Of a stretch of DNA of 64,000 bases, positions 705 to 61,114 are shown one piece after another (the stretch's first letter is position 1; every line of letters starts with the position of its first letter). The notes below the pieces were generated by a model. That model made no database searches. It was not told where the DNA came from and saw nothing but the letters and a program-made list of their open reading frames with translations. This stretch comes from Enterobacteria phage KhF2. The translations under genes and the position numbers were made by a program. The stretch is taken from the sequence record KT184314.1, one strand, 5' to 3'.

Positions 705-780
705 TGGTAGTCCAGTGGGATTTGAACCCTCTTCTCATGTTTTTCAGACACGCGCTTTAACCATATAAGCTACTTGGACT
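705..780 (-). tRNA. tRNA-Phe (anticodon GAA)
   Basis: Hand-folded cloverleaf; T-loop TTCAAAT; anticodon loop CTGAAAA; CCA encoded. Confidence 0.6.
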
Positions 781-786
781 ATAAAT

Positions 787-862
787 TGGGGTGACCTACG
801 GGATTTGAACCCGTATAGACCATGTTCACAGCATGGGTCATTACCATTTATGATAAGGCCAC
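787..862 (-). tRNA. tRNA-His (anticodon GTG)
   Basis: Anticodon stem CCATG/CATGG with loop CTGTGAA; T-arm CGGG-TTCAAAT-CCCG; CCA encoded. Confidence 0.6.
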
Positions 863-893
863 ATTTAAGGACTCTCGTAAGAATCCTTAGAAG

Positions 894-969
894 TGGCAGC
901 GGCATAAGGATTTGAACCTTAATAGGACAGCTTCAGAGACTGTTGCATTGCCAGTTATGCTATACCGCT
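894..969 (-). tRNA. tRNA-Gln (anticodon CTG)
   Basis: Acceptor AGCGGTA/TGCCGCT, D-stem GCAT/ATGC, anticodon loop CTCTGAA, G73, CCA encoded. Confidence 0.6.
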
Positions 970-974
970 AAATT

Positions 975-1054
975 TGGTACTCCATATCGGATTCGAACCG
1001 ATACATAACACAGATTTTAAGTCTGGCCTCTCTGCCAATTGGAGTAATGGAGCA
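975..1054 (-). tRNA. tRNA-like, anticodon probably TAA (Leu by anticodon), atypical short variable loop
   Basis: T-arm ATCGG-TTCGAAT-CCGAT and CCA present; anticodon loop CTTAAAA on a 4 bp stem; D-arm weak. Confidence 0.35.
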
Positions 1055-1055
1055 T

Positions 1056-1131
1056 TGGCGGGGGATGTTGGAATTGAACCAACTTCTTCGATTTCAAAGA
1101 CCGAGGTTTTAACCTTGTAAACTAATCCCCT
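1056..1131 (-). tRNA. tRNA-Gln (anticodon TTG)
   Basis: Acceptor AGGGGAT/ATCCCCC with G73; D-stem GTTT/AAAC; anticodon stem TCGGT/ATCGA with loop CTTTGAA. Confidence 0.55.
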
Positions 1132-1139
1132 TTAAATCT

Positions 1140-1697
1140 TTACTTTCTCAGTGGATGAATAAAGAATGCCAACATAACTCTTTCCCTTGAGAATGCTCTT
1201 TCTTCTGGGACAACACTTTTTAGTTTCCATCCAATATAAATTCTCCAGTAAAACTGTTTACCAAAGACTTTAATTGATGGGATAAAGGCGAATAATCCCC
1301 AAGCATTACTGTTCCACATTAGGAGATAACCAGTCTGATTATCTTCAGGGTCAGAACTTACGTTGATATTACCTTTCCACTTAGTAACATCTTTTACATC
1401 TCTTCCTAATACATGGTAAGAGAAGTTATAAGCTTTGTTTCTCCAGAGCCATCCGACTCTTTGCATGTAGACGCCTAGTTTACCAATCCATCTAATATTA
1501 GCCCATCTTTTAACGTGACCTTCATCACCATCAATTGGGTTGTCATATGTCTCCATCCATCTGAACCCGAAAGGTAAGCGTCCTTTCTTCTCACTGTAGA
1601 ATGGAACTACAAAAGGTGCTAAGATAACTGCTAAGATTGCTGCAAATGGCTCTAACAAAGCTAAGAAAATCCATGAAACATATTTTAAGTATCTCAT
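1140..1697 (-). CDS. hypothetical membrane protein (185 aa) embedded in tRNA array
   Basis: ORF track; hydrophobic N-terminus; start overlaps stop of upstream ORF (ATGA). Confidence 0.45.
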   Translation of the reverse strand: MRYLKYVSWIFLALLEPFAAILAVILAPFVVPFYSEKKGRLPFGFRWMETYDNPIDGDEGHVKRWANIRWIGKLGVYMQRVGWLWRNKAYNFSYHVLGRDVKDVTKWKGNINVSSDPEDNQTGYLLMWNSNAWGLFAFIPSIKVFGKQFYWRIYIGWKLKSVVPEERAFSRERVMLAFFIHPLRK

Positions 1698-1936
1698 TGT
1701 CTAACCCTCGTAAGGAGGTAAGCATTATTATTTGTTTCTGAGCTTTCTGGTAACATTGTCTCAAAATTGACGCTTTTAAGTTGTCTTCCACCAAAGCAAT
1801 GACCAATAAATCTTTCTACTTTTATTGGGTCGCATTCCCATCCGACTTTCAAGAAAATGTGGGTATCTATAGTGGGAACCCTTACAAACTCAATACTATT
1901 GGGATTTTCATGTTCAACGACGATTAATGTTTGCAT
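1694..1936 (-). CDS. hypothetical protein (80 aa)
   Basis: ORF track; translationally coupled to 1140..1697. Confidence 0.4.
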   Translation of the reverse strand: MQTLIVVEHENPNSIEFVRVPTIDTHIFLKVGWECDPIKVERFIGHCFGGRQLKSVNFETMLPESSETNNNAYLLTRVRQ

Positions 1937-1954
1937 AAATTCCTCTTGCTTATC

Positions 1955-2030
1955 TGGCGCAGGATAAGGGATTCGAACCCCTATTAACAGCTTCGTAGAC
2001 TGTTGCTCTATCCATTTGAACTAATCCTGC
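1955..2030 (-). tRNA. tRNA-Arg (anticodon ACG)
   Basis: Acceptor GCAGGAT/ATCCTGC, anticodon stem ACAGT/GCTGT with loop CTACGAA, T-loop TTCGAAT, CCA encoded. Confidence 0.6.
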
Positions 2031-2035
2031 AAAAT

Positions 2036-2113
2036 TGGTGTTCCAAGACGGATTCGAACCGTCACTAGTACAAGGTTTGAGCTTGCATCCTCTGCCAATT
2101 GGGATACTGGAAC
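2036..2113 (-). tRNA. tRNA with anticodon CAA (Leu by anticodon) but class-I-like short variable loop
   Basis: Acceptor GTTCCAG/TTGGAAC with A73; anticodon stem GCAAG/CTTGT with loop CTCAAAC; only a 6 nt variable region. Confidence 0.45.
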
Positions 2114-2114
2114 A

Positions 2115-2193
2115 TGGTACTCACTAAAGGACTTGAACCTTTTTCTTCATCTTGTAAGGGTGATGTTTTACCATATAAACTAAGCGAGTATGA
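2115..2193 (-). tRNA. tRNA-Val (anticodon TAC)
   Basis: Acceptor ACTCGCT/AGTGAGT, D-stem GTTT/AAAC, anticodon loop CTTACAA, A73, CCA encoded. Confidence 0.55.
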
Positions 2194-2195
2194 AA

Positions 2196-2283
2196 GAGGT
2201 CTGGAGTTGTGCCGCTAACTCAACTCCGTGGAATTTGTTACGGTCTTCAGTTGACTCAAAGCGGTCTTTCACTTGACCTCTGA
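2196..2283. ncRNA. structured RNA candidate / non-canonical tRNA-like element
   Basis: Closing stem GAGGTC...GACCTC plus internal hairpins (GGAGTTG...CAACTCC; CCGT...ACGG); no canonical T-loop found. Confidence 0.25.
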
Positions 2284-2285
2284 AT

Positions 2286-2362
2286 TGGTGCTGCTCACAG
2301 GACTCGAACCTGCATTTCCATCCTTACAAGGGATGTGTAATAGCCAATTATACGAAAGCAGC
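2286..2362 (-). tRNA. tRNA-Thr (anticodon TGT)
   Basis: Anticodon stem CATCC/GGATG with loop CTTGTAA; T-loop TTCGAGT; CCA encoded. Confidence 0.6.
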
Positions 2363-2368
2363 ATTGTT

Positions 2369-2443
2369 TGGAGCATCCAGAGGGAATCGAACCCTCAACC
2401 TCAGTTTGGAAGACTGTAATTTTCCCGTTTAAACTATGGATGC
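2369..2443 (-). tRNA. tRNA-Gly (anticodon TCC)
   Basis: Acceptor GCATCCA/TGGATGC; anticodon loop CTTCCAA; T-arm GAGGG-TTCGATT-CCCTC. Confidence 0.6.
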
Positions 2444-2449
2444 ACTAAT

Positions 2450-2526
2450 TGGTGGAGAAGCAGGGAATTGAACCCTGTACTTAAGTTTGCAAAACTTATG
2501 TTTTAACCATGTAAACTACATCCCCA
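2450..2526 (-). tRNA. tRNA-Ala (anticodon TGC)
   Basis: G3:U70 wobble pair in acceptor stem (Ala identity element); anticodon stem TAAGT/ACTTA with loop TTTGCAA. Confidence 0.6.
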
Positions 2527-2531
2527 ATGTC

Positions 2532-2607
2532 TGGTACAGGTGGAGGGAATTGAACCCATCGTCTTACTGATTAAGAGTCAGCCGCATAACCATTTTGCTA
2601 CACCTGC
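2532..2607 (-). tRNA. tRNA-Lys (anticodon CTT)
   Basis: Acceptor GCAGGTG/CACCTGT; anticodon stem GCTGA/TCAGT with loop CTCTTAA; T-stem only 3 clean pairs. Confidence 0.5.
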
Positions 2608-2614
2608 ATTAATT

Positions 2615-2692
2615 TGGTAGGAGACAAGGGATTCGAACCCTCAAACACCAACTTCTAAGGATGGTAGGTTTACCAATTACCATCAATCTCCC
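2615..2692 (-). tRNA. tRNA with anticodon TAG (Leu by anticodon), short variable loop
   Basis: T-arm GAGGG-TTCGAAT-CCCTT; anticodon stem CCATC/GTTGG (one mismatch) with loop CTTAGAA; A73. Confidence 0.4.
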
Positions 2693-2948
2693 ATTAAATC
2701 TTTTTAGAGAACTTCTAAGAACCTGAGCAACAAGGTTCCACAACAAGCGACTAATAACCTTAGAAGCCCTCTAAAAAGACCTAAATAGGTCTTTGCATAG
2801 TCTTGTTTAATCCGGTGACTAGAACCTTTGGAGAGCTTGATATTATCTCTTCTCCGTGACACCTACTAGGTGCTTTGACAGTGTACGACAATACACGAGG
2901 GATAAACCGACAATGCGAACAAGCATGGACGGAGTAAATCTTATTAGG

Positions 2949-3036
2949 CGGTAAGTAAAGGAGTCGAACCCTCACCGTATCTCTACAGTGGCAACTGTTT
3001 TCAAGACAGTTTGGCTACCATTAGCCGCTACCTACC
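2949..3036 (-). tRNA. tRNA-Ser (anticodon TGA), class II with long variable arm
   Basis: 88 nt; acceptor GGTAGGT/ACTTACC, G73; anticodon stem ACTGT/ACAGT with loop CTTGAAA; long extra arm; CCA not encoded. Confidence 0.55.
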
Positions 3037-3049
3037 CCTAATAAGACTT

Positions 3050-3132
3050 TGGCATGGGACGGAGGAGTTGAACCCCTTTGAAACGGTTTTGGAGGCCGTT
3101 GCTCATGCCTTAGAGTCTTAACATCGTCCCAT
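3050..3132 (-). tRNA. tRNA-like, possible Trp (anticodon CCA), atypical 5' region
   Basis: Good T-arm and acceptor ATGGGAC/GTCCCAT with G73; anticodon-like stem-loop ACGGC-CTCCAAA-ACCGT; about 7 extra nt between acceptor and D-arm. Confidence 0.3.
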
Positions 3133-3274
3133 ATTATAATTCGAAGCTTACCCTGTTATCTCAACACTGTCAAGCTTCTTCTCAGATTATTTACATGTTC
3201 TGGAAAACATGAGATACAGACCACCTCCCTACAGGAAGACCCGCTAAGGCCGTCTAAGTAATCTGCTAACTATT

Positions 3275-3356
3275 TGGTCGAGGCGGCAGGACTCGAACCC
3301 GCATACTCCACTTACTCGGTTAACGGCGGTTTAGAAGACCGCTGAGATACGCCCCG
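3275..3356 (-). tRNA. tRNA-like, possible Arg (anticodon TCT), atypical architecture
   Basis: Acceptor CGGGGCG/CGCCTCG, T-arm GCGGG-TTCGAGT-CCTGC, perfect stem-loop GCGGT-CTTCTAA-ACCGC; D-arm not identifiable, 23 nt between anticodon arm and T-arm. Confidence 0.3.
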
Positions 3357-3604
3357 TAATTATCTTTAAAGACTCTCTTAGAAAGCCCTTAAAGATGCCC
3401 ACCTTATTAATCATACCGTGGGCGAGTACGCCAAATTCTTTAATGAGGGATTGGAAGACCTCACTGGTGTTTAGCCTATCAAGCTACTGCCAGAAAAACA
3501 TTGTCGTTTGCATTTATTTTAAATTTGCAAAATAGACGCTACGCAACGAAAACTAAGGTTACTATAAAGCAGTCACATCTCAATGTCAACAACTTTATTG
3601 AAAT

Positions 3605-3680
3605 TGGTACTGGTAGGTGGAATCGAACCACCGATGTTCCCTTATCAGGGGAGTGTTATAACCTTCTTAACTATACCAGC
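3605..3680 (-). tRNA. tRNA-Ile (anticodon GAT)
   Basis: Acceptor GCTGGTA/TACCAGT; T-arm GGTGG-TTCGATT-CCACC; anticodon loop CTGATAA. Confidence 0.55.
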
Positions 3681-3681
3681 T

Positions 3682-3758
3682 TGGAGGTTCAGATGGGAAT
3701 CGAACCCACATTCATAGGGCTTATGAGACCCTTGCATTACCTTATCTGCGACTGAACC
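3682..3758 (-). tRNA. tRNA-Met (anticodon CAT; elongator, initiator or Ile2 not distinguished)
   Basis: Acceptor GGTTCAG/CTGAACC; anticodon stem AGGGT/GCCCT with loop CTCATAA. Confidence 0.55.
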
Positions 3759-3762
3759 ATAT

Positions 3763-3838
3763 TGGTAGAAGTGGAGGGATTCGAACCCATCGCCTGTCAG
3801 ATTAAAAGTCTGCCGCATCACCATTCTGCTACACTTCC
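3763..3838 (-). tRNA. tRNA-Lys (anticodon TTT)
   Basis: Acceptor GGAAGTG/CACTTCT; anticodon stem CAGA/TCTG with loop CTTTTAA. Confidence 0.5.
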
Positions 3839-4035
3839 ATTAAATTATCTTTGTAGATAAGCTACCCAGACTTGCTTAAGGTCTGTAGCGATGTGCCTTG
3901 TTGGGTTTAAATCTAGAATTTACCCTTTCACCCTTTGTGGTCGCATACTCACAGGTAAGCTTAATAACTTATCTACAAAGATAATTACCAGACCGTTGTT
4001 TATCATCTTAAGTGCTACCATTACACCAACTCGAC

Positions 4036-4063
4036 ATCTGCCGAGTGAAGGAATCGAACCTTC
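4036..4063 (-). pseudogene. tRNA 3' fragment (T-arm plus acceptor 3' strand without a matching 5' half)
   Basis: GAAGG-TTCGATT-CCTTC T-arm followed by ACTCGGC-A; no complementary 5' acceptor strand within 100 nt. Confidence 0.25.
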
Positions 4064-4270
4064 GCCTTTTCTTTACCGGAGAAATAGATTGTTTAAGTTT
4101 TGCTGTAAACGGTCTTCTGTAAATTTGTTGAGCCAGACCAAGTTTTAAATTTTTTCAAAATTAAATTGGCTTGAAATTTTCATACGTTCTTGATGTATTT
4201 GGTCTTCTGCTCCTTTAAAGAATACTCGTAAGAACTCTTTAAGGGAGGGGCTAAATAGCCCTCTCAAAAT

Positions 4271-4347
4271 TGGCGGCTACGATGAGACTTGAACTCACAT
4301 CATCTCCCGTGACAGGGGAGTATTTTCTCCAGTTAAACTACATAGCC
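4271..4347 (-). tRNA. tRNA-Asp (anticodon GTC)
   Basis: Acceptor GGCTATG/CGTAGCC with G73; anticodon stem CTCCC/GGGAG with loop CTGTCAC. Confidence 0.6.
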
Positions 4348-4352
4348 TTTAT

Positions 4353-4440
4353 TGGTGTGCCGTGTAGGAGTCGAACCTACCGAGTCTCAATGACAAGGGA
4401 TTTACAGTCCCCACCGCTACCATCTACGGGATAACGACAC
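4353..4440 (-). tRNA. tRNA-Tyr (anticodon GTA), class II
   Basis: 88 nt; anticodon loop CTGTAAA; long variable arm; T-arm GTAGG-TTCGACT-CCTAC. Confidence 0.6.
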
Positions 4441-4448
4441 ATTTAATT

Positions 4449-4525
4449 TGGCGGTTAGTCAGGGATTCGAACCCTGTGCCATTCGCTTAACAGGCGACCG
4501 CACATACCTTATGTGCTTCCTAACC
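4449..4525 (-). tRNA. tRNA-Asn (anticodon GTT)
   Basis: D-arm GCAC-ATAAGGTAT-GTGC; anticodon loop CTGTTAA; G73. Confidence 0.55.
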
Positions 4526-4602
4526 TTAATACATTGCCAGACCGTGTTTTTTCTTTTATCCGCAAAAAGTATTTTGTTGCTGAATACGGTCTTCTGCAAA
4601 AT

Positions 4603-4679
4603 TGGAGGCGGGTGCAGGAGTCGAACCTGCCGATACCATGCTAATGAGACATGTGAGACGCCCTTTCTCTATACCCGCA
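4603..4679 (-). tRNA. tRNA, anticodon probably CAT (second Met/Ile2-type), fold imperfect
   Basis: T-arm GCAGG-TTCGACT-CCTGC; candidate anticodon stem CATGT/GCATG with loop CTCATTA (unusual T37). Confidence 0.4.
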
Positions 4680-4768
4680 ATTCTTAATGACCAGACCAAA
4701 TATCTTCTTTGTCCGATTAACTTTCAGATGAGTAGATTAAGTTTGCTGTAATTGGTCTTCTGTCAAAA

Positions 4769-4847
4769 CTGGCGTTCCAGAAGGGATTTGAACCCTCAGA
4801 TATCCACTTTGAAAGAGTGGTGACTTTACCATTTTGTCTACTGGAAC
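4769..4847 (-). tRNA. tRNA-Glu (anticodon TTC)
   Basis: Acceptor GTTCCAG/CTGGAAC with G73; anticodon stem CCACT/AGTGG with loop CTTTCAA. Confidence 0.55.
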
Positions 4848-4854
4848 ATTAATT

Positions 4855-4930
4855 TGGTCTCTGTTGGAGGACTTGAACCTCCGGCCTTACCGCCCCAAAC
4901 GGAACGCTCTACCAAGCTGAGCTAAACAGA
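4855..4930 (-). tRNA. tRNA-Pro (anticodon TGG)
   Basis: Canonical D-arm AGCTCAGCTTGGTAGAGC; anticodon loop TTTGGGG; T-arm GGAGG-TTCAAGT-CCTCC. Confidence 0.6.
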
Positions 4931-5096
4931 GATAAACTTTTCAAACTCTATGTAACAACTTTAACATTATTTTTTAGTGGTTGTCAAGAACTTTTTTAAA
5001 ATATTTTTCAGTATCTTAGAAAAGCTCTCATTTCGTTTCTATGTAGAACATATTAAAGGGTATTAAACACATTGTCAATACCCTTTTTAAAACTTT

Positions 5097-6512
5097 TTAC
5101 CAGATGTAACGGTCAATCATTACTGCTTTGAGCATTACGCTGATTGGGTCAAACTTCTCACCACCAAGCAGAGCTTTTAAAGTGGCTGGAGAGAAACCAG
5201 ATACCATTGCTACACCGTTATCCTTAACAGACACTTCGCAAGTACCACTACGGTTTGCTAAGTACCAGAATACCAGTTGTGGCATTTCGTATCCAGCTTT
5301 TTTGTACTTACTACGAATTGCTTCAAAGTTTGTACGACCATTTGCACCGTCAACCTGATTGAACTCCATATCAGAGAAGATGATAAGCTTACTTGGCATA
5401 TCTTTCTGAGTCAAGTTGTTTCTCTTACCTGTCTCAAGGATGCGGTCAAAAGCTGCTTGTAAGTTAGTTGAACCGTATTCAACATGTCGCATTACTTGAC
5501 GGTGACGGTTCTTTAAATCGCCACTCAGTTCGATGAAATGAGGGTTTGTTGAATAAACCATTAACTCGTTCTTAAAGCAACCTGTATTGCGTTCTGCTAC
5601 ATACAAGGCAAGTGATACACCAATATCAAGGGCAGTAATTGAGCCAAAATTCACCCAAGACATTGAACTTGAAACATCAGACATACATAGAATGTTTTCA
5701 CCCTCTGCCATCCAGTTTGGTAGTGCTTTCCACTGCTCATTAGCAACATCTGCATTACCATACTTAACAGATTTAATCACATCGTATGGGTAAACAGCAC
5801 CAGCATTAATCTTAGCCTCACCCTTTGATAATGACTCGATGTAAGCTTTGTAGCGTTCTCCATCTTTACGGTTAAACAGTTTTTGGTAACGTGCAGCAGC
5901 AAGTGAAGGAATCTTACTGTAGTCAATCTTACCAAACTCATTAGCAGAGATTTTTTGCTCAACTGTATCAGATAGTGCAGACAACAGTGTGCGGTACTCT
6001 TTCTCACTTAAGTTTGCAAACTTGCAGAAACGTTTTACAAACTGCTTATGACGTGGTTTGACTCGTGGTAACCACTTAGCTGCCAAACCTGCTGTTGCAG
6101 GGTCTAGTAATGCTGCTTCTAAATGTTTGAAGGCATCTGTCTCGAAACGAGTACCTACGAAGATTTTGAAGTCATCAAAACGACCAAGTTCTGCAATCTT
6201 ATCCATAATACGAAGAACCTGTGTAGGCTCTAAAACTTTGTCTTCGATTGCTTGAAGTAAAACAGTTCGGAAAGCTTTACGCTCACCCATACCTTCTCGT
6301 ACATCTCGCATATGCAGTAAAATACGAACTGCAACATCAACACCCTCACGCAAAGCTTTGTAGAACAGGTCTGGTAAGATTTCTACATTGCTACGGCTTG
6401 AACCAGCAGCTTTGTAAAAGTCTACCAGAGCAGACATTGATGAAGTATGGTTTACAGCACCATTTTCAGTTCGACCTGCATGAAGGTGCGCATGTTTAAA
6501 TAATTCGCTCAT
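5097..6512 (-). CDS. vWA-like domain protein (putative MIDAS motif D-x-S-x-S)
   Basis: 471 aa ORF; motif LCMSDVSSSM resembles a von Willebrand A metal-ion site; no other recognisable motif. Confidence 0.4.
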   Translation of the reverse strand: MSELFKHAHLHAGRTENGAVNHTSSMSALVDFYKAAGSSRSNVEILPDLFYKALREGVDVAVRILLHMRDVREGMGERKAFRTVLLQAIEDKVLEPTQVLRIMDKIAELGRFDDFKIFVGTRFETDAFKHLEAALLDPATAGLAAKWLPRVKPRHKQFVKRFCKFANLSEKEYRTLLSALSDTVEQKISANEFGKIDYSKIPSLAAARYQKLFNRKDGERYKAYIESLSKGEAKINAGAVYPYDVIKSVKYGNADVANEQWKALPNWMAEGENILCMSDVSSSMSWVNFGSITALDIGVSLALYVAERNTGCFKNELMVYSTNPHFIELSGDLKNRHRQVMRHVEYGSTNLQAAFDRILETGKRNNLTQKDMPSKLIIFSDMEFNQVDGANGRTNFEAIRSKYKKAGYEMPQLVFWYLANRSGTCEVSVKDNGVAMVSGFSPATLKALLGGEKFDPISVMLKAVMIDRYIW

Positions 6513-6594: not shown

Positions 6595-6966
6595 TTATTT
6601 TTTGAGGGTTGCAACAGCAGAGAACGTTGGTTTGTTATCTGTCTGAGACTGACCGCCGTTATCAGGGGTCTTCTTAGTGTCTGCTGCAATTGCTTTCATC
6701 TCACCTGCTGAGTGAGTCATGATAGTTTTACCGACCTCAATCATACTCTTGATGGTTACGTCATCTGTGTTTAACCCGAACTCTGCAAGCTTAGCAGCAT
6801 CCCTTGTAACAATCGCTTCAAATAACTTTGCAGCAAACTCAGCAGAATTGTCAATGGTCAGTTGAGCTTTTACAAGTGAGCTTTTGTTACGAGAGCCTTT
6901 TGGTCTTCCAGATGGGTTTCCAGACTGGCCTTTTTTAAACTGGCCTTTGTTTGTTCTGTTTTTCAT
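6595..6966 (-). CDS. hypothetical protein with N-terminal basic GNPSGRPKG motif
   Basis: ORF track; motif KGQSGNPSGRPKGSRN. Confidence 0.5.
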   Translation of the reverse strand: MKNRTNKGQFKKGQSGNPSGRPKGSRNKSSLVKAQLTIDNSAEFAAKLFEAIVTRDAAKLAEFGLNTDDVTIKSMIEVGKTIMTHSAGEMKAIAADTKKTPDNGGQSQTDNKPTFSAVATLKK

Positions 6967-7193
6967 TGGTATGCCTCTTATAAGACCTCTTAAAAGGCTT
7001 TTAAGATAAAAGATAGATATCCAGAAAGATATCTGTTTAAATAGCCTTTTTAGAGGAACCTTTTAAGTTATCTTCTAAGTATTTATAAGCCTACACCTTG
7101 TCAAGTACTTTGTCAACAACTTTTTAACTTGCAATAGTTCTTGACTTGTTGTATGGATTACTGTACCATCTTAGTTAAAGCTGTAGGTCTGCC

Positions 7194-7376
7194 TTGTTCT
7201 ACAAAGGAGACTTAATGAGAAAATCAAATAAACCGAAGAAAGGTAAGAATACCAATCACTGTAAGGAATCAAAAAGGGTAGAGTTAATCTACTATTCATC
7301 CTCTGAAATTGGTCTGTACCTGTTCTTTCAAAATTACAGAAGACAAGAGGATTATCTATGTGTAGTTCCCAATTAG
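7194..7376 (+). CDS. hypothetical small basic protein
   Basis: ORF track; AGGAG RBS upstream. Confidence 0.3.
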   Translation: MFYKGDLMRKSNKPKKGKNTNHCKESKRVELIYYSSSEIGLYLFFQNYRRQEDYLCVVPN

Positions 7377-14585: not shown

Positions 14586-14614
14586 GAGCCTCCTTAATCG
14601 GGGGCTTTTTTATT
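14586..14614 (+). terminator. rho-independent terminator ending the plus-strand block
   Basis: AGCCTCC-ttaatc-GGGGGCT followed by TTTTTTATT. Confidence 0.65.
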
Positions 14615-14619
14615 GAGTA

Positions 14620-16100
14620 AAATTTACGAAATTTATATTTTTTATAAAAATTTTATCGGTTGTCCCAACCTCTGGGTCACCATCATATGTGAATAAAGTA
14701 TCTACCCTTCTTAACAACCTTCTTAAGCTTACTCTCTATATAGTTATATAGTACTATATAGTATCTTAGTAACTATCTAGTGGTCTTAATAGCCCTCTGT
14801 ATAGCCCTTCTAAACACTCTTCTAACAAGCCTTCTTAACAACCTATACAATCACCTTAACCATCTCTCTACATCCTCTTAGAAGCTCCTATACACCTCTT
14901 AATCTCTATGTCAGCTATGATACTCTCTATAGGTGTTCACTAGGTGCTACTAAGCCTCTATATAGACTGTTTTAACAAACTTAACAGGAATGTCTTCACA
15001 GACCTTATCTCACAAGGTCTAACACGGTACTAACAAGGTATCTTATAAGCCTGTTATTACCTGTATTTTAGAAAGACTGTATAGGTAATTATTCAGATTT
15101 TTAAAATTTTTATAAAATAGGACTATCAAGTCATTTTTTAGGGTCTTTGAAGGAACTGAAAAATATCTGTAGAAGATGTATATCTGCTTGGTAGCCCTTA
15201 ACAACTCCCTTACAAGTACTTTGCAAAATTTTAAAATATCATTAACAATTCCTTAACAACTCTCTCAAGTTCTTAACATCTCTTCAGAGGTCTTAACAGA
15301 TTCTTAACAGAACTAACAAGGTTGTAACAAGTTCTTAACAGTTGATACATAGGCTTTACAGAATCTTAACAGATGACTAACAAGAGCTAACAAGTTAATT
15401 TTTAAGAGTTATTTTGTTAAGATAATTAACAAGTCTCTAATAAGTGTTTAATCTTTTTAACAAGCTATTAACATGGTCACTACTCTTTTCTTATCGTTCC
15501 CTTTCCTTTCTTAGTGATTCTTTAAACATACCTCTTAAAAGCTCTCTATAGCCCCTTGTAAGCCCTTTTAAGCCTCTTCCTAGTAATTACACCCCAACTG
15601 TACAGATACCTCTTTATAGGGCTTTACAGGAGCTTTTAAGGCTATGTCAAAGGTTCTTACAAGGCTTTTACGTGGTCTTAACAGAGATTTAACAAGGGGC
15701 TAACAAGTCTCTAACAAGTGCCTTAAAAGCATAACTATGTAGGGATTGTTAAGAAATTGTTAAGAAAATGTTAAGGGGGCTAGCATTTACGTAACTTTTA
15801 AGCAACTTCAAAGTAACTTTATAGCCCCTATAACATACTTTTAAGACACTAACAAGCCCTTTTTAGATATTCACAAGAATACTAATGAGATGATAAAGCT
15901 TACACCCTTATAAGATTCTTTTAAGTCTCTGGGAAGCTTTATAAAGGGCTTTTAAGGGTGAGGTAATGCAATCCCTTAAGTTAGGTTGATAAGGCTGTTA
16001 TAGAGCTTTATAGAGCGTTTAAATGGGCCATCCCCTTTCTGGGGTTATTGGCTTTTATTTAAGTTGATTTGATAAGAGGTTATAGAGTAGACTATAGAGT
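14620..16100. repeat. non-coding iteron field: more than 30 copies of (C)TTAACA(A/G) / CTAACAAG in both orientations
   Basis: No ORF of 60 aa or more on either strand; motif recurs every 10-40 bp (e.g. 15291-15400 has ten copies); lies where convergent transcription units meet. Confidence 0.7.
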
Positions 16101-28857: not shown

Positions 28858-28893
28858 TATTTTAAGGGGCTTTGAAGCCCCTTGTCAAACACT
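28858..28893 (-). promoter_or_regulatory. sigma70-like promoter with a hairpin in the spacer
   Basis: Minus-strand TTGACA - AGGGGCTTCAAAGCCCC (17 nt) - TTAAAAT upstream of the rIIB-like start. Confidence 0.45.
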
Positions 28894-31260
28894 TTAATCG
28901 TAAATTGTAGTCCCTTCTGGAACACATTTTACATCAAAACCTAAGAACTTACTCACTTCGATGGGTGACACTTTATTCCAATCTAAATGAGAAAGCAAGA
29001 AGTTTTCTTGTTTTCTTTTTGAAAGATAGTTTGTCACCTTAATAACCATACGGTCACCAGCTTTCTTAATTTTCTTGTAAAGCTTTGTATCGTTGTCAAG
29101 GCAGTCTTTCAAAGTTTTCAATACACTAATGGTATAAGTGTATGCAAATGGTGCAGCAACGTATTGGATTTTACCGAACATTGCCTCTACAGCCTCTTCA
29201 TTTCCTTCTAGGAAGATAGTTTTGTTTGTATCCCTTGAATAACAATACCCGCGAGAAATCTTCCTGTTATTAAACGTAAAGTTTCTGGCAATAATCCAAC
29301 TGCTTGTAAGGTCAAGGACACCATTCATATAGATACGCGTCATATATCTGTTATGGTTAATCCAGTGAACATCAGTTAAGCTGTCGTTCAAGAGTTTCTC
29401 ATCTACTTCAATCCAATCTTCTGGTATCTTTTTCCAATTTGCTTTTCGGAAAACATAGACTGTCTTACCTGTAACATTAGCAACTGACTTAGCTACATCT
29501 TCTGGAGATGAGCAAAAACATTCACCATCAACTGTGTCACCGATTGCCTTAATGTAAAGCTGAGGTTCTTCAATTGTGTCTAAGTCCTCTGACACCTCTT
29601 TGTAGGAGGCTACACCTTCTGCTGGAACAGCTTTCCAGAGTTTTACAACACCTCTTACAGCTTCTTTACGTTGGTAATGGTGTTCCTTATCAGACATTTT
29701 CACAATCTTTAACAAGCTTTTATCAAGTTTGTGCAGATTGATTAAGTCATCTAACTCTTTTTCAGTCGAGAATACAAAGACAATACCATTGTATCTGTGA
29801 AACAGACTTGACTCACTGGCATAGTCTCGACATGCACCACGCAAGATTTGGTTGCGTCCTACAGTCTTCTCAGTACCATTTTTATTGCGACGGTCATTTA
29901 TAACAAACAAAAACTGTTCAATTTGGCTTTTACGCATTGCGCCAAAGATATTGAACATACTTGCCTCTTGAGTGTAGGAAAGTGCTGTTGCACGAATCTT
30001 ACTCTCTAAAGAGTTGAACTTGACATAAGCAACTGGGTCATAAAGATAATCTACTTTAGGGATGTTGTTTCCGTTCCTATCAACCTTAATATTACCTTTA
30101 CCGTCACGTTCATAAATGACTGAGCCGTCTTCTGCGTAGATAATTCCACGACGAATGTTTAGTAATTCTTCTTCCAGAGAATCAAGCTTAACGCCTCCCC
30201 ACTCTAACTTTGGACACACAGCATTAAACATCTCTCGTGAGTTCAAACGTAACTCAGCATAAGCCTGTGCAGCATCCATGAGTGTAGGTTGACTGTTAAC
30301 TTTCTTGATAACATCCTTTGTAATTGCTTCAGTTATCTTTTTAGTAGCCTCAATGATAACATTTTTTGTCGTGTCATTCATCTGCAATGCTTCACGAGAA
30401 GCTGCAATAGCGACTGAACCAATAGGCATGTAGATGTTTACAAGGTCTACGCTCCTACGGAAAAATTCTGGCAATACTTTGAAGAAATCATCACCAAGTA
30501 ATGCTTCCATGTTAACAGGGTAGGCAATGTTACCCATCACCACATTAAACTCTGTCCTGTTATCACTAGAACGCCAGCTGTGCTTATGAATCATGGCATC
30601 ATAAACACCTTCTTCACGGGCAATGACGTTCATATCTGCTAATACATCGTCGTACTCAATATTACTTTCTGGTTTTACAGTGAAGTATGAGTACACATTC
30701 CCAGCTTCTTCAAAGAACTTTGAGATACGGTGGTCAGCAACCGCCACACGTACAGCTAAACCATTAGGTTCTTTTGTTGGGTTAGTTGTCAGCTTAGTTA
30801 CTTGAGGGATACCATTCTCAAGATAAACAGAGTACTTATTAACAACACCATCAACATAGCTAGATACTGTGAATGACTGAGCAATTGCAAATGGTGACTT
30901 TGAGCCGATACCCATTGCACCAATGTAGTCATTAGAGTCATTCTTCGTAGAAGCTCCATAGTTTAGGTACAAACTCATAACTTTATCATGAGTCAATCCA
31001 GTTCCAAAATCACGAACTTCGAAGTAAGGCTCAAAACGAGTAGGTAAATGCACATGGAACGGGATGTTCTCTTTTCCAGCCTCTTTCTGAGCATCTACTG
31101 CGTTACATGACAGTTCACGAATCACTGCCCTTTCTTTAAAGGTATATACACCAGAACTCAAAAGGCTGAACATCTCAGGTGTCATTGTAATCTGTGCTTG
31201 AGACGTCTCTAAAGAAGTTGAACTCTTAATCACTTCTGCGTGGTCGTTTACCATGCGCAT
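28894..31260 (-). CDS. rIIA: rIIA-like protein with N-terminal GHKL (Bergerat-fold) ATPase motifs
   Basis: Motifs VIRELSCNAVDA, RDFGTGL and GAMGIGSKSPF correspond to the N, G1 and G2 boxes of GHKL ATPases as found in T4 rIIA; 788 aa. Confidence 0.6.
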   Translation of the reverse strand: MRMVNDHAEVIKSSTSLETSQAQITMTPEMFSLLSSGVYTFKERAVIRELSCNAVDAQKEAGKENIPFHVHLPTRFEPYFEVRDFGTGLTHDKVMSLYLNYGASTKNDSNDYIGAMGIGSKSPFAIAQSFTVSSYVDGVVNKYSVYLENGIPQVTKLTTNPTKEPNGLAVRVAVADHRISKFFEEAGNVYSYFTVKPESNIEYDDVLADMNVIAREEGVYDAMIHKHSWRSSDNRTEFNVVMGNIAYPVNMEALLGDDFFKVLPEFFRRSVDLVNIYMPIGSVAIAASREALQMNDTTKNVIIEATKKITEAITKDVIKKVNSQPTLMDAAQAYAELRLNSREMFNAVCPKLEWGGVKLDSLEEELLNIRRGIIYAEDGSVIYERDGKGNIKVDRNGNNIPKVDYLYDPVAYVKFNSLESKIRATALSYTQEASMFNIFGAMRKSQIEQFLFVINDRRNKNGTEKTVGRNQILRGACRDYASESSLFHRYNGIVFVFSTEKELDDLINLHKLDKSLLKIVKMSDKEHHYQRKEAVRGVVKLWKAVPAEGVASYKEVSEDLDTIEEPQLYIKAIGDTVDGECFCSSPEDVAKSVANVTGKTVYVFRKANWKKIPEDWIEVDEKLLNDSLTDVHWINHNRYMTRIYMNGVLDLTSSWIIARNFTFNNRKISRGYCYSRDTNKTIFLEGNEEAVEAMFGKIQYVAAPFAYTYTISVLKTLKDCLDNDTKLYKKIKKAGDRMVIKVTNYLSKRKQENFLLSHLDWNKVSPIEVSKFLGFDVKCVPEGTTIYD

Positions 31261-37463: not shown

Positions 37464-37617
37464 TTTAACTTATCTCTCAATTCACAATAAGAGAGTCCTA
37501 AAAAGAACCCTAGTAAGACAGAACCTATGAATAGGCCAATGATGTTCTCTGCCATATCTAACATCCAATAAAAAAGGTGATGCAAGCCTATCAAGACCCA
37601 CATCACCTTGTCAAGTT

Positions 37618-52265: not shown

Positions 52266-52688
52266 TTATTTCTCTCTCAGTTGGTTAAGTTTCTTTCTAG
52301 AACATTTTAAGTTTTCAGATGAAGAAAAGTCAAGTGTCTTTTCAGAACGTGGATAATAGTGCCTATCCCAAGAAGTTTCAACATCGTTAATCAGTGATGC
52401 TAGATTACACAGGTCTGTACCACTTTGCAACCTCTTTTTAAGAGAATCTAGTAAAGCAACTGTGTCTTTAGCTTTACGTCTCGCTGTAGCAACATCTTTC
52501 ATATGCTCAAATACAGAGCATTTTAAGTCATCTTCATAGTCTTCAGACAACTCTATTTCATGTTGTATATCAACCATTCTCCTGTGATGGTGAGCATATT
52601 CCCGTTGAGCAGCAATGTCAAGTTCTTCCAACTTCTGCAAAGCTCTAACAAAGTCAGCTATGTCTGGGTGAACAAACATTTTCTGCAT
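52266..52688 (-). CDS. hypothetical protein
   Basis: ORF track. Confidence 0.45.
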   Translation of the reverse strand: MQKMFVHPDIADFVRALQKLEELDIAAQREYAHHHRRMVDIQHEIELSEDYEDDLKCSVFEHMKDVATARRKAKDTVALLDSLKKRLQSGTDLCNLASLINDVETSWDRHYYPRSEKTLDFSSSENLKCSRKKLNQLREK

Positions 52689-52863
52689 GTAAGCCTCTTT
52701 TAAGTAGCTATTAAGTTTTAATCTTTTATCTTAACGTATTCTATACGTTATACTTTAAAGCTTTTTAAAAGCTATTAAATAATCTTTTAAGAATTTTAAA
52801 GTATCTGTATAGTTAAACTGTTAAGTAACCTTTTAAGTAAAAACCCACTTCGCAAAGATTAAC

Positions 52864-52888
52864 ACCTTGTCAAGTGCATTGTCAACTT
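52864..52888. promoter_or_regulatory. conserved operator/promoter-like motif ACCTTGTCAAGTGCATTGTCAAC in a divergent intergenic region
   Basis: Near-identical to 7093-7118 (ACCTTGTCAAGTACTTTGTCAAC); TATAAT box 10 bp downstream. Confidence 0.5.
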
Positions 52889-52945
52889 GCTTTTTATAAT
52901 TTTTTGCAGTAATGTATGAGGTTAATGATTTTAGAGGGAGTAAAA

Positions 52946-60609: not shown

Positions 60610-60822
60610 ATGGCTCTTAAAAAGTTACATCCCAGAAGCGGTTATGGTAAGATAATTGACGATACAGACGGCTTTACAGTCTTTACAGTCATCTGTCAGG
60701 ATGATTCACAGATTGAAAAGGCTCTTGACGATTATCTTAATGATGAACGTGAAAAGGTCAGAGCTACAAACATAGACTCATTAATTGATACTTCACGTAA
60801 ACGGAAGAAGAAAGATGAATGA
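60610..60822 (+). CDS. hypothetical small acidic protein
   Basis: ORF track. Confidence 0.45.
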   Translation: MALKKLHPRSGYGKIIDDTDGFTVFTVICQDDSQIEKALDDYLNDEREKVRATNIDSLIDTSRKRKKKDE

Positions 60823-61114
60823 GGTTTTTGACCCTTATGCTCCACAAGATGATTGGGAGGCTGATAGAGAGGCTGAAATGGAGAGTTATATTTGTCCAAT
60901 GGATGTAGACGAGATGAGGGATTTCGTTGCACATCGTTTTAAGAGAGAGATTAAATCCAGAGGTCTTTCTCAAGAGCAAGTTGCTAAAATTTGTGGTATC
61001 TCTCAAGCTCGTGTATCCAACATAATCCACCTCACTGGGAATGTCTCTCTTGAGTATATGTTGGGTGTCTGTGAAAAATTTGGTGTTAATTTTAATTTAA
61101 GGTTGGCAGATTAA
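60815..61114 (+). CDS. helix-turn-helix DNA-binding protein
   Basis: HTH-like segment LSQEQVAKICGISQARVSNIIH; start set at ATG 60815 overlapping the previous stop (ATGAATGA); track start is 60785. Confidence 0.5.
   Translation: MNEVFDPYAPQDDWEADREAEMESYICPMDVDEMRDFVAHRFKREIKSRGLSQEQVAKICGISQARVSNIIHLTGNVSLEYMLGVCEKFGVNFNLRLAD

Follow-up and report, generated by a model that had tools for sequence, protein, structure and literature searches.

The 23-bp motif common to two intergenic regions of the 64,000-nucleotide stretch analyzed here (the window; Enterobacteria phage KhF2, KT184314.1) is probably the core of two σ70-type promoters, P41 (~7081-7129) and P97 (~52849-52896), both on the minus strand. 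The preliminary description took the plus-strand reading, which conceals the identity of the motif; its reverse complement is GTTGACAAnnnnCTTGACAAGGT, two perfect σ70 -35 hexamers (TTGACA) with a period of 12 bp. The upstream TTGACA would act as the -35 element, preceded by an UP-like A-tract and followed by a minimal TAnnnT -10 element at 17 nt (P41) or 18 nt (P97). Host RNA polymerase would read both promoters and start two leftward transcription units, that of P41 comprising gp41, gp42, the tRNA cluster, and then morphogenesis genes, and that of P97 beginning with gp97 and taking in genes for replication and nucleotide metabolism as well as small early genes. The second TTGACA appears to be a clade-specific addition to the spacer that is strictly conserved at three promoters. 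Our best guess is that it offers an extra docking site for σ region 4 or for a phage-encoded factor, and it would modulate promoters that have a strong -35 and a weak -10. To judge from their sequences, the promoters are ordinary in kind (host type), with one conserved extra -35 box.

The regions around both motif copies are 97 to 99% identical to ~250 Felixounavirus genomes (Felix O1, wV8, KhF1, SeKF_63, and others), and the window can be assigned to Felixounavirus as a Felix O1-like genome whose orientation is opposite to that of the Felix O1 record. The E. coli genomes searched do not contain the region, and an origin as host-derived or prophage DNA was rejected on this ground. [quoted passage not shown] The two motif sites are these two divergent intergenic regions. 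The first, gp40/41 (hub 1), lies between the open reading frame at 6595-6966 (-) and a gene with its ATG at 7215 (+), and the second, gp96/97 (hub 2), lies between the open reading frame at 52266-52688 (-) and the DNA polymerase gene (+), in agreement with the preliminary placement of the sites between divergent blocks. The leftward genes gp41 and gp97 begin with ATGs at 6966 and 52688, respectively. Searches of both intergenic regions against Rfam gave only sub-threshold noise.

On the plus strand, the 23-mer reads ACCTTGTCAAGTACTTTGTCAAC at 7095-7117 and ACCTTGTCAAGTGCATTGTCAAC at 52864-52886, coordinates slightly shifted from those first given. It is found exactly twice in the window, against an expectation of 0, and allowing up to three mismatches gave no further match in the window and none in 100 dinucleotide-preserving shuffles. 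Similarity between the hubs reaches past the 23-mer, with common blocks AACCTTTTAAGT (~25 nt to the left of the motif) and GTATCTGT. The heptamer TTGTCAA by itself is barely enriched in the window (31 observed versus 20.9 expected), and perfect TTGACA-N6-TTGACA occurs only at the two motif sites; it is the tandem arrangement, not the heptamer alone, that stands out. The earlier description as two direct half-sites is correct, these being the plus-strand view of the tandem TTGACA; in the minus-strand direction the two copies conform to (G/C)TTGACA-N6-TTGACAAGGTG.

The elements assigned at hub 1 are the following:

7095..7117 (-), motif copy 1, reading GTTGACAAAGTACTTGACAAGGT, the core of P41.

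7111..7116 (-), upstream TTGACA of P41, taken to be the functional -35; identical to the consensus at 6/6 positions, with TAGGCT 17 nt further on, and unchanged in 27/27 loci.

7099..7104 (-), second TTGACA of P41, within the spacer (about -23 to -18), invariant in 27/27 loci.

7088..7093 (-), -10 hexamer TAGGCT of P41; variants TAGGCT, TAGCCT, TAAGTT, and TAGTGT, with T1, A2, and T6 invariant and the middle three positions varying.

7120..7129 (-), A-tract ahead of the -35 of P41, reading AGTTAAAAAG in the minus-strand direction, in an AAAAAG-n3-4 context.

6967..7081 (-), predicted untranslated leader of gp41, ~115 nt from a putative start, AT-rich and highly conserved.

7141..7169 (+), rightward promoter P40 of the gp40-24 block, composed of TTGACT-N17-TACCAT and retained in Sf14, SUSP1, and M719.

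Those assigned at hub 2 are as follows:

52864..52886 (-), motif copy 2, reading GTTGACAATGCACTTGACAAGGT, the core of P97.

52880..52885 (-), upstream TTGACA of P97, taken to be the functional -35; unchanged in 28/28 loci, and annotated as a promoter in phage ASO1A.

52868..52873 (-), second TTGACA of P97, within the spacer; invariant in 28/28 loci, absent in phages P778 and Arno162.

52856..52864 (-), extended -10 of P97, TGT then TAATCT, 18 nt after the upstream hexamer; TAATCT or TAGTCT in 28/28 loci.

52689..52849 (-), predicted untranslated leader of gp97, ~160 nt from a putative start, very AT-rich.

52887..52915 (+), rightward promoter P96, TTGCTT-N17-TAATGT, for the DNA polymerase block; TAATGT (SUSP1) or TAGGGT (Sf14) in the alignment.

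P96 is our own reading, which a promoter scan of the hub did not flag.

Several features argue for the promoter assignment, from which we infer σ70 dependence. First, the -35 hexamer matches the consensus at 6/6 positions at both sites and is invariant in 55/55 related loci. Second, a -10 hexamer follows at the proper distance, TAGGCT at 17 nt in P41 and TGtTAATCT at 18 nt in P97; the overall match to TATAAT is only 3/6, and the pattern of T1, A2, and T6 being invariant across genera with a variable middle is the conservation expected of a σ70 -10. Third, both elements are intergenic, upstream of the genes that they would serve and co-oriented with them. Fourth, an A-tract (AAAAAG-n4) precedes the upstream hexamer at both sites, and that at 7120-7129 we take to resemble a proximal UP element. 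Strong early σ70 promoters of lytic coliphages, such as T7 A1, are of the canonical E. coli type with an UP-like A-tract. P41 and P97 share with this type the perfect TTGACA, the 17- to 18-nt spacer, a -10 keeping T-12, A-11, and T-7, and an A-tract at about -40 to -46, and they share with coliphage early promoters a location at the head of gene blocks in a phage without its own RNA polymerase. They differ in the minimal -10 (3/6) and in the second perfect TTGACA in the spacer, 12 to 13 bp downstream, conserved in three genera and at three promoters.

The distance between the leftward and rightward -35 hexamers is 24 bp (7117-7140) at hub 1 and 1 bp (52886) at hub 2, whereas the leftward -10 always lies at 17 to 18 nt, implying that the geometry of the motif is fixed for the leftward promoters only. 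The motif had been proposed as a shared operator or promoter element; the promoter half of that proposal holds, limited to leftward gp41 and gp97, while no sign of an operator for a dedicated regulator was seen, such a role being possible for the second hexamer only. At 52867-52904, the -35 hexamers of P97 and P96 are 1 bp apart. The polymerase footprints on these two promoters would have to overlap, both could not be occupied at once, and the promoters may compete.

Both promoters have been predicted before, one at a time. Whichard et al. (2010, PMC3185647) used the upstream hexamer at hub 1 for their putative P41. In the ASO1A record (MZ726791), putative promoters are annotated at both hubs, on the second hexamer (as the -35) at hub 1 and on the upstream hexamer at hub 2. 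These are the same DNA elements as our motif sites. The annotations are consensus matches that describe no tandem architecture, and they differ in the choice of -10 and even of hexamer, which shows that the sequence alone is ambiguous. Whichard et al. (PMC3185647) found no other homologous sequence in the 40-41 or 96-97 regions. A literature search on the motif strings returned no relevant paper, and one for a Felixounavirus transcriptome or promoter motif nothing usable; the common tandem-hexamer design and its conservation have not previously been pointed out.

Read on the plus strand, TTGTCAA-N5-TTGTCAA could be taken for a pho-box-like site at which a winged-helix response regulator (PhoB/OmpR type) activates the rightward promoters. 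The pho box consists of CTGTCAT repeated every 11 bp; the motif resembles it in having direct repeats with a TGTCA core, and one distant contig, L193 (IMGVR_UViG_3300045988_028620), has a double hexamer with an 11-bp period. However, the period of the motif is 12 bp (13 at a third site, described below), each half-site matches the pho-box repeat at only 5/7 positions, and the distance from the motif to the rightward -10 is 24 nt (P96) or 47 nt (P40), whereas a pho box takes the place of the -35 at ~10 nt. On the other strand, all six positions of TTGACA, the G included, are invariant, just as the σ70 consensus predicts. Such a site would also tie essential phage genes to host phosphate starvation, and we consider this reading almost certainly wrong.

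To follow the promoters across relatives, the regions upstream of gp41 and gp97 were taken from GenBank phages of other genera and from IMG/VR contigs by protein-anchored retrieval; a direct IMG/VR scan with TTGACANNNNNNTTGACAAG (14 specified bases) was dropped, as it returned at least 120 unrelated contigs by chance matches. Both hexamers are perfect in 27/27 gp41 and 28/28 gp97 loci from Felixounavirus, Mooglevirus, and Suspvirus, and in all 55 a -10 with invariant T1, A2, and T6 lies 17 to 18 nt past the upstream hexamer. The most variable stretch in these loci is the linker between the hexamers. The 6-nt linker of P41 has two to three different bases per column, and that of P97 includes TGCA, TACA, TGTA, TGCG, ATAA, TTCA, AGCA, and ATCA; among otherwise identical Felixounavirus sequences it is the sole polymorphic stretch, being TGCA, TACA, TGTA, or TGCG. 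Conservation is unusually high over entire intergenic regions (99% within the genus), so that gene conversion or general constraint may explain part of the hexamer invariance.

More distant relatives have a simpler arrangement. At the gp97 position, Yersinia phage P778 and Pectobacterium phage Arno162 have single promoters, TTGACA-N17-TAATGT and TTGACA-N17-TAGGCT, respectively, with no second hexamer in the spacer, and their single TTGACA aligns with the upstream TTGACA of P97. Upstream of gp41, Kolesnikvirus has TTTACA-N17-TACACT. The single-hexamer promoters of distant relatives imply that the upstream hexamer is the ancestral -35 and that the second hexamer would have arisen in the spacer within one clade.

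How the second hexamer is maintained is less easily explained. A second promoter starting from it was rejected, as no TAnnnT is present 16 to 18 nt after the downstream hexamer at any of three tandem sites (candidates TACTTA, AAGTGG, and GGGGGT), and its conservation is therefore not accounted for by ordinary promoter function. One explanation, compatible with the promoter assignment, is that a DNA-binding protein of the phage uses the tandem (G/C)TTGACAA repeats as its operator; by covering the -35 and spacer of P41, P97, and a third promoter at 17.6 kb, it would repress them or shift transcription towards the overlapping rightward promoters. The sole recognizable DNA-binding regulator that was found is encoded in the DNA polymerase transcription unit:

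60815..61114 (+), 99-amino-acid HTH_3 (Cro/CI-type) protein; Pfam HTH_3, E = 4.9e-10.

As a protein binding the motif, it is a speculative candidate. An operator would account for a second hexamer that is conserved without a partner -10, and at the 52-kb hub, with leftward and rightward -35 hexamers 1 bp apart, a bound protein could act as a switch. The distribution of the HTH_3 protein would also fit. It is present in 260 phage records, of which all but two (Zymomonas, 34% identity) carry host names of the Felixounavirus/Mooglevirus/Suspvirus group; homologs occur in Ounavirinae of Escherichia, Salmonella, Shigella, and Citrobacter but in none of the Erwinia, Pectobacterium, Hafnia, and Yersinia phages, which do have gp41 and gp97 homologs, and the single-hexamer relatives examined fall in groups without the protein. 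This co-occurrence, however, represents a single evolutionary event and is weak for that reason. Cro/CI-type (XRE) proteins normally bind inverted repeats, whereas the hexamers are direct repeats, and the small palindromes in the linkers (AAGTACTT and TGCA) are not conserved. Furthermore, the flanks of both hexamers (cTTGACAa) match those of the ordinary single-hexamer promoters of the phage, so that nothing beyond a -35-like element is specified. We consider an operator of this kind unlikely. The gp41 (DUF5681) and gp97 proteins and their neighbors were rejected as recognizable regulators, having no informative Pfam, PHROG, NCBIfam, or PDB match.

A broader proposal, which we regard as quite unlikely, is that the second TTGACA joins with the first in a clade-specific control site, present where the leftward units begin and at one early promoter. 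A phage protein (possibly the clade-restricted 99-amino-acid HTH_3 protein) or a second polymerase would dock at this site and time or balance the overlapping divergent promoters. If true, it would give a first handle on the temporal program of Felix O1-type phages. The T4 middle promoters, with a MotA box and an AsiA-remodeled σ70, provide an analogy only, in that phage sequence between the -35 and -10 could reprogram the host polymerase; neither the sequence of the MotA box nor its -30 position is matched here. From -35 to -18 the promoters read TTGACAAAGTACTTGACA or TTGACAATGCACTTGACA, without a TGCTTtA core near -30, and MotA-dependent middle promoters were rejected accordingly.

Expression timing bears on the promoter class. 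By RT-PCR in Felix O1, transcripts of genes 41, 42, 96, 97, and 98 peak at 25 min and those of genes 20 to 22 at 5 min. A maximum at 25 min rather than 5 min for genes 41, 42, 97, and 98 counts against simple constitutive strong early promoters, although the timing is too coarse for a promoter class to be assigned from it.

The genome-wide distribution of TTGACA was determined on the complete genome of SeKF_63, which is 97 to 98.5% identical to the two regions searched. Its intergenic DNA, 12% of the genome, contains 24 sense and 4 antisense copies, and its coding DNA 55 sense and 26 antisense copies. Per kilobase, this amounts to 2.2 (sense) and 0.37 (antisense) in intergenic DNA and to 0.70 (sense) and 0.33 (antisense) in coding DNA, so that the intergenic enrichment by which the preliminary description was to be judged is borne out, the hexamer being ~4 to 6 times denser on the intergenic sense strand than elsewhere. 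There are ~15 intergenic TTGACA-N16-18-TAnnnT promoters in SeKF_63 with a common upstream AAAAAG context, and AAAAAG-n3-4 stands ahead of most TTGACA promoters of the phage. Perfect TTGACA-N5-7-TTGACA occurs three times in this genome versus 0.14 expected, a count reached in 0/300 first-order Markov simulations. Besides P41 and P97, the following promoters are of note in the window:

17568..17596 (-), third tandem-hexamer promoter, with TTGACA at 17591-17596, N7, TTGACA at 17578-17583, and -10 TAACTT at 17568-17573, 17 nt after the upstream hexamer.

37585..37615 (-), single-hexamer promoter with the common 12-mer CTTGACAAGGTG, TTGACA-N18-TAGGCT.

The third promoter keeps its design in Suspvirus, Mooglevirus, and phage M719. 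SUSP2, Sf13, and M719 all have a perfect second hexamer; at the upstream hexamer, Sf13 and M719 have TTGACA and SUSP2 has TTGACG. All three tandem promoters have a skeletal -10 (3/6), compared with 4 to 5 of 6 in most single-hexamer promoters. Related sequences noted earlier at 28873-28893 and in "subfamily B modules" are real and belong to other minus-strand promoters, of which they form the -35 regions (TTGACA/TTTACA), the modules being a recognizable family of TTTACA promoters.

P41, P97, and the third promoter share a conserved noncanonical feature, and a perfect -35 box kept in the spacer of three promoters in three genera poses a small natural puzzle for promoter biology. The analysis also places the most probable starts of two of the four transcription units in Felix O1-type phages, a classic group in Salmonella typing that is also widely isolated for therapy and biocontrol.

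The leaders downstream of these promoters raise the question of replication. The two regions might be origins, in which a strong promoter and an AT-rich untranslated stretch prime synthesis through a persistent transcript, or in which the repeats are iterons. Both sites precede very AT-rich, highly conserved noncoding leaders of 115 to 160 nt, one adjoins the DNA polymerase and primase-helicase genes, and cumulative GC skew has minima at ~7 kb and ~52 kb. With their strong promoter, conserved AT-rich untranslated region, and adjacent replication genes, the sites resemble the T7 primary origin and T4 oriF and oriG; unlike in the T7 primary origin, the tandem elements are hexamers of one promoter, not two complete promoters. 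The turns in GC skew coincide with changes in the direction of transcription, and this confounding with gene orientation led to the rejection of skew as evidence for an origin. AT-rich DNA is present, but the repeats (8 bp each) number only two, where an iteron origin would have an array of three or more; no initiator gene is recognizable, the neighboring proteins lack initiator domains, and the third copy of the design, at 17.6 kb, is in an ordinary short intergenic spacer. A role of the two regions as origins is very unlikely in our estimation. The bolder version of the control-site proposal would have promoter and AT-rich leader together double as transcript-primed replication origins.

The octamer CTTAAAAG has 31 copies in the window versus 5.8 expected, clustered at 15534-15956, 6989-7067, 52697-52837, and 17529. 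It is concentrated in the terminal-repeat region and in the leaders of the three tandem promoters, where it begins at about +11 to +17 relative to the predicted starts, with copies at 7060-7067, 6998-7005, and 6989-6996 in the gp41 leader and at 52830, 52784, and 52697 in the gp97 leader. More distant relatives have arrays of CTGAACAG and CTTAACAG in the same leaders.

The terminal-repeat region lies at the convergence of plus- and minus-strand gene blocks, a 1.5-kb stretch free of open reading frames (14600-16100). The sequence of SeKF_63, a close relative, has both of its ends in this stretch, in the form of an exact direct terminal repeat of 613 bp. The counterpart of this repeat in the window is 15190-15780 (88% identity), which places the physical genome ends of this phage type inside the window. 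Dense phased arrays of the cTTAACA(A/G)G type fill 14700-16000 (30 per kb versus a window mean of 4.9), in runs spaced ~11 bp (9 to 11) such as 15294/15305/15314/15325/15336 and 15679/15690/15701/15712; the units are mostly on the plus strand, with some inverted beyond 15750. The arrays are possibly packaging, architectural-protein, or polymerase-binding sites. The record of Salmonella phage Si3 (NC_041922) is opened at 7084/7096 and lacks the 11 bp (7085-7095) that would join its end to its start; this is probably an assembly or record artifact and not a genome end. A terminus or pac site at the motif, hinted at by this opening, was rejected because the SeKF_63 terminal repeat has its counterpart at 15190-15780.

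The promoter hexamers could themselves be members of this phased family, bound by the same architectural or packaging protein. CTTGACAAG is one base off the array unit CTTAACAAG, the terminal region is dense in units (30 per kb versus 4.9), and related CTTAAAAG and CTTAACAG units are found in the leaders of all three tandem promoters. The G at the promoter-hexamer position, however, is found in 0/35 array units and is invariant in both hexamers of 55/55 loci, and the periods differ (11 bp in the arrays, 12 to 13 bp in the promoters). Membership in the array family is thus hardly credible, and a σ70-type promoter core remains the preferred reading.

Among the genes of the P41 unit, gp41 (6595-6966, -; DUF5681) has a conserved N-terminal GQSGNPSGRPKGSRNK motif, AT-hook-like in appearance, which is also present in proteins of many unrelated viral contigs of ~40 kb; no relative of gp41 with a solved structure was found. 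A small terminase subunit is not identified in Felix O1. The product of gp42 (5097-6512, -) has DUF2828 and DUF7788 domains and is elsewhere annotated as an "RNA-binding" or "vWFA" protein. Its gene is directly upstream of the cluster of 23 tRNA genes (705-4931 of the window), and an RNA-handling role is possible.

Other minus-strand promoters have GC-rich hairpins between the -35 and -10, at 28871-28900 in the window and in modules near 18976, 19311, 21782, and 22162. Examples are TTGACA AGGGGCTTCAAAGCCCCT TAAAAT and TTTACA AGGGGCTTA...TAAGCCCC. Located between small early genes, these units are apparently compact modules that combine a terminator or processing element with a promoter.
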